64,000 bases of DNA from Candidatus Omnitrophota bacterium (GTDB lineage Bacteria; Omnitrophota; Gorgyraeia; Gygaellales; Profunditerraquicolaceae): assembly GCA_043823435.1 (NCBI GenBank), contig JBDRAV010000016.1, positions 1,122-65,121 of the forward strand, read 5' to 3'. Of the stretch, positions 32,993 through 33,062 are shown piece by piece. Position 1 is the first letter of the stretch, and the number at the start of each line of letters is the position of its first letter. The notes beneath the pieces are model-generated. The model was not told the DNA's origin. It worked only from the letters and a program-made list of their open reading frames with translations, and searched no databases. The position numbers and the translations under genes are program-made.

Positions 32993-33062
32993 TAGCGTAT
33001 AGCGTAGAGCGTCTAGCGTATAATAAAACTGAATGCTATCTGCTATCCGCTAAACGCTAAAA
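32993..33062 (+). repeat. thrC-coaB spacer made of two 4 x 7-nt arrays
   Basis: TAGCGTA TAGCGTA GAGCGTC TAGCGTA (32993-33020) and GCTATCT GCTATCC GCTAAAC GCTAAAA (33035-33062). Shares words with the acsD-acsE spacer. Confidence 0.8.

Follow-up and report, generated by a model that had tools for sequence, protein, structure and literature searches.

Tandem heptanucleotide arrays in spacers and housekeeping genes of an Omnitrophota genome and its relatives

Palindromic repeats of the REP/BIME and MITE-like kinds are found in bacterial spacers, Rickettsia palindromic elements are inserted in frame within genes, and tandem heptanucleotide repeats (STRR) are also known from cyanobacteria. Long simple sequence repeats (SSRs) of prokaryotes were reportedly studied by Mrazek, Guo and Shah in 2007, as later papers relate. 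Two of these papers describe heptanucleotide repeats as the most abundant class of long repeats in many prokaryotes, with polymerase slippage that prefers 7 nt proposed as their origin (PMC4692102, PMC4679880). Geobacter metallireducens carries 49 'four tandem heptanucleotide repeats' (GGACCGG) within and between genes and also paired sites of four octanucleotide or five heptanucleotide repeats (PMC2700814). Repeats of GGGAATC were described in Xanthomonas and of GGGGAYT in Nostoc (Rehm et al. 2015, PMC4692102), and the Nostoc heptamers overlap start codons; that article also cites repeats of Calothrix (PMC4692102). TAACTGA occurs as direct repeats in marine Beggiatoaceae, cyanobacteria and Bacteroidetes (MacGregor 2015, PMC4679880). 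Here we describe arrays of heptamers in a 64,000-nt stretch of DNA from a Candidatus Omnitrophota bacterium (contig JBDRAV010000016.1; called the window throughout), taking as the main site an element of two arrays in the spacer between thrC and coaB (32993-33062).

The arrays share the features of long SSRs, namely head-to-tail 7-nt units, an excess of period 7, copy-number change among relatives and a higher density between genes than within them. Features of this kind are known from elsewhere; for this phylum the literature searched contained no description of heptamer arrays. We consider the arrays probably to be heptanucleotide microsatellites, driven by slippage with a register of 7 nt (occasionally 8 nt) and filtered by selection.

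Period-7 arrays in the window and in related contigs

Arrays were scored in sliding windows of four units at a lag identity of at least 80%, and 100 dinucleotide shuffles served as the null. Six four-unit arrays of period 7 were observed in the window compared to 0.01 expected, with periods 4-6 and 8-14 at expectation, and a maximal-segment test gave four period-7 arrays versus 0.03 expected. At a looser cutoff of 75% seven period-7 arrays were found (2466-2496, 3283-3327, 10402-10437, 32824-32866, 32990-33023, 33032-33063 and 56567-56606). Tandem Repeats Finder called period 7 at 3287-3323 (5.3 copies), 32831-32858 (4.0 copies, perfect), 32993-33022 (4.3 copies), 33034-33052 (2.7 copies) and 56574-56599 (3.7 copies). 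An excess of period 7 over shuffles and over other periods, as presumed by an initial annotation made from the letters alone, is therefore present in the window, and it was found in related contigs as well. The same annotation described whole spacers as built from arrays. Some spacers are indeed essentially all array, but of the 31 spacers in the window that measure at least 10 nt no more than 3-4 hold heptamer arrays, and the lag-7 autocorrelation across all window spacers shows a small bump only.

The best relatives of the window's ThrC, 64-82% identical, come from metagenome-assembled genomes (MAGs) of Candidatus Omnitrophota and from similar metagenome contigs. Searches for exact matches to the CoaB-like, ApgM and ThrC proteins of the window returned none, and its GatA is 100% identical to a protein of an Omnitrophota MAG, on the window's own contig. 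Loci and contigs of relatives compared with the window are referred to by L-numbers (L001 etc.); no second strain of the window genome was found, and comparisons of copy number were made between the contigs of relatives. We compared periods by counting tandem arrays with a score of 40 or more and no fewer than 2.8 copies. The window had 4 period-7 arrays and at most 1 of any other period, 26 Omnitrophota-like genome loci had 13 and at most 2, and the 40 closest metagenome loci had 20 and at most 4. In the other taxa (54 loci, mostly of Streptomyces) 10 arrays of period 7 stood against 35 of period 9, 15 of period 12 and 6 of period 6. Among spacers of Omnitrophota-like loci, 19 of 330 contained a lag-7 block, compared to 0-2 for lags 5, 6 and 8-11. 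The presumed lineage specificity thus holds in so far as period 7 dominates in Omnitrophota-like contigs, unlike in the control taxa, but heptamer repeats have been described in other phyla. A MAG of the candidate division FCPU426 (L019) has seven heptamer arrays in 7.8 kb, with most spacers filled and often with inverted pairs; being so dense in arrays, it shows that the phenomenon is not confined to Omnitrophota. Heptamer arrays are also present in L044, L057, L065 and L120.

In the window and related contigs taken together, spacers hold 31 arrays and the interior of genes 25, and a further 8 are located at gene ends. With ~50-57 kb of spacer and ~0.85-0.9 Mb of coding DNA, the density of arrays per base is by estimate ~20-fold higher in spacers.

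The thrC-coaB spacer provides a strong example, and its letters at 32993-33062 agree exactly with those first reported. Its first arm (32993-33022, + strand) reads TAGCGTA TAGCGTA GAGCGTC TAGCGTA, amounts to 4.3 units and begins 5 nt downstream of the thrC stop codon TGA (32986-32988); over the first four units (32993-33020) 17 of 21 positions match at lag 7. After a gap of 14 nt the second arm follows (33035-33062, + strand), GCTATCT GCTATCC GCTAAAC GCTAAAA, with 18 of 21 lag-7 matches and units that are the reverse complement of the TAGC type. It stops 1 nt short of the TTG start (33064) of coaB, a CoaB-like gene with a match to Pfam DFP. That the two arms are mutually reverse-complementary (26-nt arms, 77% complementary) had gone unremarked in the initial annotation. 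They form a segmented hairpin of -25.3 kcal/mol (z = -2.6), which 2 of 200 shuffles equalled in stability. An intrinsic (Rho-independent) terminator was rejected, as no terminator-like site is present in 32700-33300 and the hairpin is followed by AAAAATTG and not by a T/U run. A promoter consensus was not found at the element.

The adjacency of thrC and coaB is kept in 24 loci. At 16 of these junctions the genes overlap or are separated by at most 24 nt, and the remaining 8 have spacers of 36-111 nt, 6 of them filled by heptamer arrays of unrelated sequence. Since long spacers are mostly filled by arrays and the other junctions are tight, the array is effectively the spacer. It is an insertion into a junction that was probably tight at first. 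More generally, some spacers in these compact genomes appear to have been created by arrays or array hairpins, which bears on operon architecture and translational coupling. In one relative (L113, 3263-3493) the hairpin element after thrC (AAGAGTG x 5 ... CACTCNT x 4) is tandemly duplicated with a period of 108 nt.

The array between larB and FmdE (10406-10440, + strand) reads (AAGTAGT) TAGTAGA TAGCAGA TAGTAGT TAGGGTG. It proved a good example, with 17 of 21 lag-7 matches and a spacer that is essentially all array: the repeat occupies the whole 26-nt spacer, adjoins the TAG stop of larB (10409-10411) and includes the GTG start of FmdE. As RNA it is unstructured (-1.4 kcal/mol, z = 0.2). A 12-nt match to the reverse complement of the second thrC-coaB arm was found at this site. 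Orthologous spacers hold GTAAGCT x 4 in L162 and 3 units in L163. In the gatC-gatA spacer (2271-2298, + strand; CAGTTAT GAGTTGT GAACAGT GAGTTAT) the ATG of gatA overlaps the last unit. With 13 of 21 lag-7 matches this example is marginal when taken alone, but the orthologous spacer contains clear arrays of 4-6 units in L162, L164 and L165-L169, and for this reason we read the window spacer as what is probably a decayed four-unit array. Start codons inside the last unit, as initially proposed, are thus seen for FmdE (GTG) and gatA (ATG), and they occur at junctions of relatives as well. The proposed array at ybeY-recO did not hold up: lag-7 matches amount to 9 of 21, and the site consists of one 9-nt word repeated at 14 nt, by estimate not above chance.

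At the gatC-gatA and larB-FmdE junctions of relatives the arrays include TAAGCTN x 4, GTAAGCT x 4, TAGGTAT x 6, TAAGCTT x 6 and TAGGTKW x 6. Single spacer arrays are rich in TAG and AGG(T), and their RNA shows no structure (~-1 to -2 kcal/mol, z ~0). Relatives often have overlapping genes at junctions that bear arrays elsewhere. In the guaA-dnaE spacer of the window (51168-51263) the unit measures 8 nt (51172-51259, + strand): GTTCGTAA x 4.2 at 51172-51205 is followed by a second arm of about five inverted units (TTATGAAC and variants), with 17 of 21 matches at lag 8.

Spacer arrays in inverted pairs fold as long hairpins with z between -2.6 and -8.3, which concerns paired arrays only, not single or coding ones. 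Many of these stems, built from arrays, are broken by one mismatch per unit. The 8-nt units of guaA-dnaE (4+5) give -28.6 kcal/mol (z = -5.2; 0 of 200 shuffles equal), and hairpins of relatives reach z = -6.3 (L090), -7.9 (L007), -8.3 (L113), -3.3 (L094), -3.7 (L085) and -4.6 (L019). Neither a terminator nor a promoter consensus was present in the array hairpins examined. A search of Rfam 15 at the gathering threshold gave no family match to the arrays, the matches in the window being five tRNAs only. Folding energies of sense and antisense strands and counts of G-U pairs showed no consistent asymmetry and hence no hint of selection at the RNA level. A further inverted layout, CCGATCG CCGATCG ... 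CGATCGG CGATCGG in L111 (18711-18749), is built on the palindrome CGATCG and recalls the HIP1-like words of cyanobacteria.

Arrays inside genes

A perfect array, GCTCCAA x 4.0 (32831-32858, + strand; 100% matches), lies within thrC itself. It encodes part of a 9-residue insertion, LQAPSSKPI, in a surface loop just before a conserved 13-residue motif, and the insertion stands opposite a 9-residue gap in the Aquifex ThrC structure 2zsj. In the same loop, which extends from GYF to the conserved motif, at least eight other species have different heptamer arrays. These are near-perfect, with units such as CCGAACA (L001), CGCACAA (L006), GGGGCAA (L083), ATCACAA (L090), ACCGAAA (L091), GCCAAGC (L095) and GCGCAAA (L099). 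Loops without an array measure 5-7 residues, those with an array or its remnants 11-15 residues. When 21 nt are subtracted from the window array the loop reads KGSKPIR, resembling KKSKVTR of L088.

GatA has two loops of this kind. In loop 2 the array AGAACCG/AGAGCCG x 5.3 (3287-3323, + strand) encodes RTESREPRTENR, and the loop is 5 residues longer than in solved GatA structures. In 120 Omnitrophota homologues the loop-2 segment mostly measures 24, 30-31 or 37-38 residues, with 35 of the 120 lying between these main classes at 25-27 residues. In most segments the first four residues recur seven residues further on (TENREPKTENR, AQNPEPRAQNQ, TNDQRPTTNDQ, SPQPTAHSPQP). At the DNA level the loop-2 arrays of relatives have 1.7, 4.7 or 7.7 units, among them ACCAACG x 4.7 and AGCCCAC x 4.7, both perfect, CCCAGAA x 4.7 and one array of 7.7 units. 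Loop 1 of the window contains a degenerate CTCCCAG-type array of ~4.4 units (2466-2496, + strand; 16 of 21 lag-7 matches), and L162, L163 and L164 have clean four-unit arrays there, e.g. CTTACAG x 4 and CTTACAA x 4. Within clusters of GatA sequences at least 90% identical, exact indels of +/-7 residues were observed in three clusters, all of them in loop 1, and an indel of +14 residues in loop 2 of a fourth. One pair of relatives, L165 and L166, shares ~95% identity in the surroundings of the site (~94% over aligned columns) and differs by exactly 21 nt within the loop-1 array, which comprises 4.7 ACACCAA-type units in one and 1.7 in the other. The GatA loops are an independent replicate of the pattern seen in the ThrC loop.

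A third protein is affected at its end: AACTCCA x 3.7 (56574-56599, + strand) forms the C-terminal tail of hisS and runs into the stop codon TAA (56601-56603). The tail extends past the end of alignments to solved histidyl-tRNA synthetase (HisRS) structures. With thrC, gatA and hisS, the initial observation that the heptamer word varies by site while the 4 x 7 layout recurs, including inside genes, was confirmed. Its suggestion to compare syntenic sites likewise bore fruit, as orthologous spacers and loops of relatives hold arrays with different units.

The coding units are poor in T and free of stop codons in all three phases, and the coding arrays are plain head-to-tail repeats without an inverted partner. 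Since 7 and 3 share no factor, only 21 nt keeps the frame, and coding arrays accordingly step by three units. Judged from the sequences, they are confined to apparently tolerant loops or tails, namely those of ThrC, the two GatA loops and HisRS. We considered phase-variable contingency loci and rejected them, as the hosts are housekeeping genes (thrC, gatA, hisS) and only in-frame variants of three units occur among relatives.

One would expect essential genes to be cleared of repeats whose unit length cannot be divided by three. GatA, ThrC and HisRS tolerate 7-nt repeats, which are conserved in position across the phylum and actively toggling, and which would thus be a quantised source of 7-residue loop variation. 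The arrays are likely hazards for assembly and annotation and potential markers for resolving strains.

Size and origin of the arrays

Array sizes were determined by seeding on three units and extending unit by unit. A strict detector of perfect runs was dropped, as it shortened degenerate arrays and underestimated the sizes of spacer arrays. In Omnitrophota-like sequences including the window we counted 14, 29, 16, 4 and 1 arrays of 3, 4, 5, 6 and 10 units, respectively; the corresponding numbers were 6, 16, 6, 3 and 0 in spacers and 5, 12, 6, 1 and 1 inside genes. Shuffles gave 3-unit arrays only (~3.4 per data set). The controls fall monotonically from 3 to 4 to 5 units (84/20/2 for period 6; in other taxa 10/7/4 for period 7 and 19/3/3 for period 9). 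In a detection simulation 3-unit arrays were at most ~1.2-fold harder to detect than 4-unit arrays, and isolated 2-unit arrays in spacers are no commoner than 4-unit ones. The suspected clustering at four units (28 nt) is therefore real in coding and non-coding DNA and not an artefact of detection. A generator of fixed 28-nt blocks, the explanation first offered for it, does not agree with arrays ranging from 2 to ~10 units and with one spacer array that varies by a single unit. Inside genes the four-unit mode results from frame selection. In spacers it is not explained in this way.

Units were also compared between arrays. Pairs sharing at least 6 of 7 bases made up 5 of 43 pairs within genomes compared to 39 of 1169 between genomes. 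The mean best match was 4.1/7 within and 3.9/7 between genomes, most pairs within a genome being unrelated. Some unit families are nevertheless common to unlinked loci and occur in both orientations and both in genes and in spacers: CTCCAAN in thrC, hisS and gatA of the window, and TAAGCTG with its complement CTTACAG in L162. At least three unrelated unit families coexist within the 64-kb window. A genome-specific template was rejected because sharing of units within genomes is too modest to claim one.

According to the microsatellite reading, arrays would lengthen and shorten through strand misalignment during replication or repair, with a strong preference of this lineage for a 7-nt register, and selection would set where arrays persist and at what sizes. 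In genes they toggle among ~1.7, 4.7 and 7.7 units, the typical state being one original unit plus three, which would give the '4 x 7' appearance. If an array shrank to 1-2 units and then regrew from a unit that had mutated, it would become homogeneous, so that orthologous loops would come to hold near-perfect arrays of different words in different species. Between genes, arrays fill the short gaps from stop to start codon in operons that are densely packed, either as single unstructured TAG/AGG-rich arrays running into the start codon or as inverted pairs forming segmented hairpins. The hairpin form behaves like a small dispersed palindromic (REP-/MITE-like) element, with composite copies at unlinked junctions that are present or absent among close relatives, and it may spread or be exchanged as such. 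In one spacer L167 and L168 differ by a single 8-nt unit, an ordinary one-unit step where there is no reading frame to keep.

Several points weigh against this reading. Plain slippage by one unit predicts spacer sizes that are broad or fall monotonically, and the observed peak is at four units. Growth from one to four units in an essential gene would require either frameshifted intermediates or a single multi-unit step, neither of which was directly observed. The occurrence of unit families at unlinked loci (5 of 43 versus 39 of 1169) is not predicted by purely local, independent slippage. Finally, the sole one-unit step seen in a spacer array, between L167 and L168, involves an 8-nt unit.

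Alternatively, all arrays, those in genes included, might be very small mobile or dispersed palindromic insertions (REP-, MITE- or RPE-like), with the periodicity being internal to the element and slippage secondary. We regard this as rather unlikely. It draws on composite sequences that are common to unlinked spacers. The acsD-acsE spacer (16046-16119, + strand) holds a second copy of the TAGCG element: it starts with TAGCGTA GAGCGTT, the first TAG being the acsD stop codon, and continues with inverted TACGCTA ACCGCTA, the GC palindrome CCTGCCTGCCGGCAGGCAG and CGCTAAA CGCTAAA. With the thrC-coaB spacer it has 13 nt (TAGCGTAGAGCGT) and 14 nt (CGCTAAACGCTAAA) in common, both without a mismatch and in the same order (33000, 33048). 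The spacer had initially been listed among the 4 x 7 sites; its repeats are real, but they are laid out in 2+2+2 units and represent a homologous copy of the thrC-coaB element. In L092 a composite 22-mer is common to two spacers, and a composite array of L167 recurs in L013 between different genes (exact over 17/18 nt by search, ~29/31 by reading). Related dispersed copies thus number two to four within the 64-kb window and two in L092. The array of L167 belongs to a 126-nt hairpin of AAGCGTA-type units, and the close relative L168 lacks any spacer at that junction. Inverted repeats of 8 nt terminate the hairpin and are simply its repeat unit.

Insertion into genes may also be represented. A tentative partial copy at 26090-26126 (+ strand), GCCTGCCGG..GGCAG followed by CGTTAAACGCTAAA, lies in frame in a variable loop of an NAD(P)H-hydrate dehydratase gene (25655-26524), with ~7 residues more than in solved homologues. 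It resembles the acsD-acsE element in its right half and could be a palindromic element copied into a gene. The modest sharing of unit families within genomes points in the same direction. The coding arrays, however, are simple head-to-tail repeats lacking an inverted partner, the units at one loop differ in nearly every species, and the indel between L165 and L166 falls wholly within the array and equals exactly three units. Array pairs within a genome are mostly unrelated, as seen from the mean matches given above. Moreover, no transposase, RAYT-like or reverse transcriptase gene is present among the genes of the 64-kb window, and no clear target-site duplication was found around the L167/L168 element.

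A process specific for heptads could also write about three units per event, leaving arrays of about four, so that size would be set by the mechanism and not by selection, in Omnitrophota and apparently in some other uncultivated lineages such as FCPU426. To us this seems unlikely. If true, it would account for the four-unit mode shared by coding and non-coding DNA and for near-perfect arrays in essential genes where about one unit stood before, and it would be a novel mutational mechanism, one that keeps reshaping the surface loops of proteins and the junctions between genes.

As another possibility, the spacer arrays might be cis-acting elements under selection. They would then be periodic platforms for a protein that reads heptads or for the ribosome, with four units reflecting function. 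Possible roles include stops in all frames combined with Shine-Dalgarno-like AGG/AGGT, and hairpins that join stop and start codons or protect the upstream mRNA. Position and unit number are kept as the sequence turns over, as at gatC-gatA with its 4-6 units of different words in six relatives, and the spacers peak at four units despite the lack of a frame constraint. Single arrays span the distance from stop to start codon and are unstructured and TAG/AGG(T)-rich, hairpins cover the entire stop-to-start gap, and regulatory roles have been proposed for heptamers in Nostoc, Beggiatoaceae and Geobacter (PMC4679880, PMC2700814). Still, many relatives have no spacer at the same junctions, and identical arrays are found in the loops of proteins, for which roles of this sort would be senseless. 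The sense strand has no consistent folding advantage or G-U bias, terminator and promoter consensus as well as Rfam families are missing from the arrays, and the units are too diverse for one sequence-specific binder. We therefore consider a cis-acting role improbable.

The initial annotation also spoke of a templated process, for which no evidence of a template was obtained. A dedicated enzyme, for instance a reverse transcriptase or primase-polymerase with an internal template as in telomerase, would write some three to four heptamers wherever DNA is broken or nicked, and the size of the block would be given by the enzyme. The four-unit mode common to coding and non-coding DNA would fit such an enzyme, as would near-perfect arrays of 4.0-4.9 units where the sequence before expansion holds about one unit and the unit families found at unlinked loci in both orientations. 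It is hard to reconcile with many unrelated units per genome, with the one-unit spacer change and with 8-nt arrays of the same architecture; no candidate enzyme is encoded in the window and nothing requires a template, so that we judge it highly improbable. Chance, base composition, codon periodicity or assembly artefacts deserve practically no credence: the weak cases gatC-gatA (13 of 21) and ybeY-recO (9 of 21) are within reach of chance, but the six arrays against 0.01 expected concern period 7 only, codon periodicity would favor multiples of 3, as seen in the control taxa, and the same loci bear arrays in dozens of independent assemblies.

Other window features and comparison with known systems

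Several palindromic repeats other than the heptamer arrays were noticed. The GC-rich palindrome CCTGCCTGCCGGCAGGCAGG is found in the window at 16088-16105 and 35039-35053 and partially at 26090-26105, as well as in L085 (spacer 2364-4003) and L169 (~4555-4575). Its appearance is that of a conserved REP-like hairpin, and at acsD-acsE it sits within the heptamer element. The spacers 37914-37991 and 45148-45263 are built from direct as well as inverted repeats of ~23 nt, which contain GGGACACTTCTC, a core of 12 nt, along with its complement GAGAAGTGTCCC. Their hairpins are strong (z = -4.9 and -4.4) and belong to a dispersed palindromic family distinct from the heptamer arrays. The gatA-gatB spacer (3770-3865) and the spacer after groEL (48218-48270) have repeats with a period of 23 nt, GCACCNGGTGC palindromes and a shared AGATTAG, and fold with z = -5.2 and -3.0, respectively.

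The genes of the window are housekeeping and Wood-Ljungdahl-type genes, and the + strand carries almost all of them. Together with a GC skew that stays positive along the whole window (1-64000), this suggests a single replichore with genes on the leading strand. Three tRNA genes are clustered at 26542-27231 and two more lie at 17445-17518 and 29691-29765. Three consecutive genes with PilZ domains occupy 28109-30536, and Wood-Ljungdahl corrinoid and CODH/ACS-associated genes (CdhD, RACo, AcsE-like) are located at 10886-16925. The only sizeable open reading frames on the minus strand (1-1662, 46178-46516 and 54859-55206) have no Pfam match; the one of 554 residues that runs off the left edge of the window may encode a lineage-specific protein.

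Among long SSRs of prokaryotes, as later papers relate, 7-nt units are over-represented compared to other units of 5-11 nt and are mostly intergenic, as observed here. The 2007 work reportedly stressed that coding regions favor units that are multiples of three, whereas here 7-nt units dominate even in essential genes and change by three units at a time. The elements of Geobacter resemble ours in having four units, in comprising heptamers and octamers, in being both genic and intergenic and in forming paired sites on opposite strands. They differ in that each genome-wide family has one consensus unit and was read as regulatory; the window and its relatives combine many unrelated units, and at orthologous sites these vary from species to species.

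The arrays of Xanthomonas share with ours the four-unit mode, convergent inverted pairs with the potential to form stem-loops, and intergenic sites that are occupied alike in related species but vary extensively in length and sequence (PMC4692102). The units of Xanthomonas and Nostoc, however, carry G-tracts that can form G-quadruplexes, which explains a need for four units, and the Xanthomonas arrays were described as intergenic and not as located in housekeeping genes (PMC4692102). A G-quadruplex explanation was rejected for the present arrays, as TAGCGTA, GCTCCAA, AACTCCA, AGAACCG and TAGCAGA contain no G3 or C3 tract. TAACTGA repeats lie in two to six copies directly upstream of start codons, with a suggested role in translation and occasional copies in open reading frames (PMC4679880). 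They represent one specific heptamer per lineage, possibly transferred horizontally, whereas here the word varies by site and by species.

Like REP/BIME and MITE-like repeats and Rickettsia palindromic elements, the paired arrays are imperfect palindromes in spacers internal to operons, with what appear to be dispersed copies, with presence or absence among relatives and with a possible in-frame copy in a gene. Compared with what is generally known of those families, they are unlike them in that their arms consist of tandem 7- or 8-nt units with a mismatch in every unit.

Four aspects appear to be new. The first is the frame-locked toggling by three units in essential genes, at loops that the phylum has conserved; a literature search on in-frame three-unit heptanucleotide toggling returned nothing relevant, which is absence of evidence only. 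The second is the presence of many unrelated units in one genome, the third are spacers made of array-built hairpins, and the fourth is a four-unit mode shared by coding and non-coding DNA without G-tracts. The habit of four units, seen in Geobacter, Xanthomonas and Omnitrophota and in coding as well as non-coding DNA, points to a common rule of heptamer-repeat dynamics.

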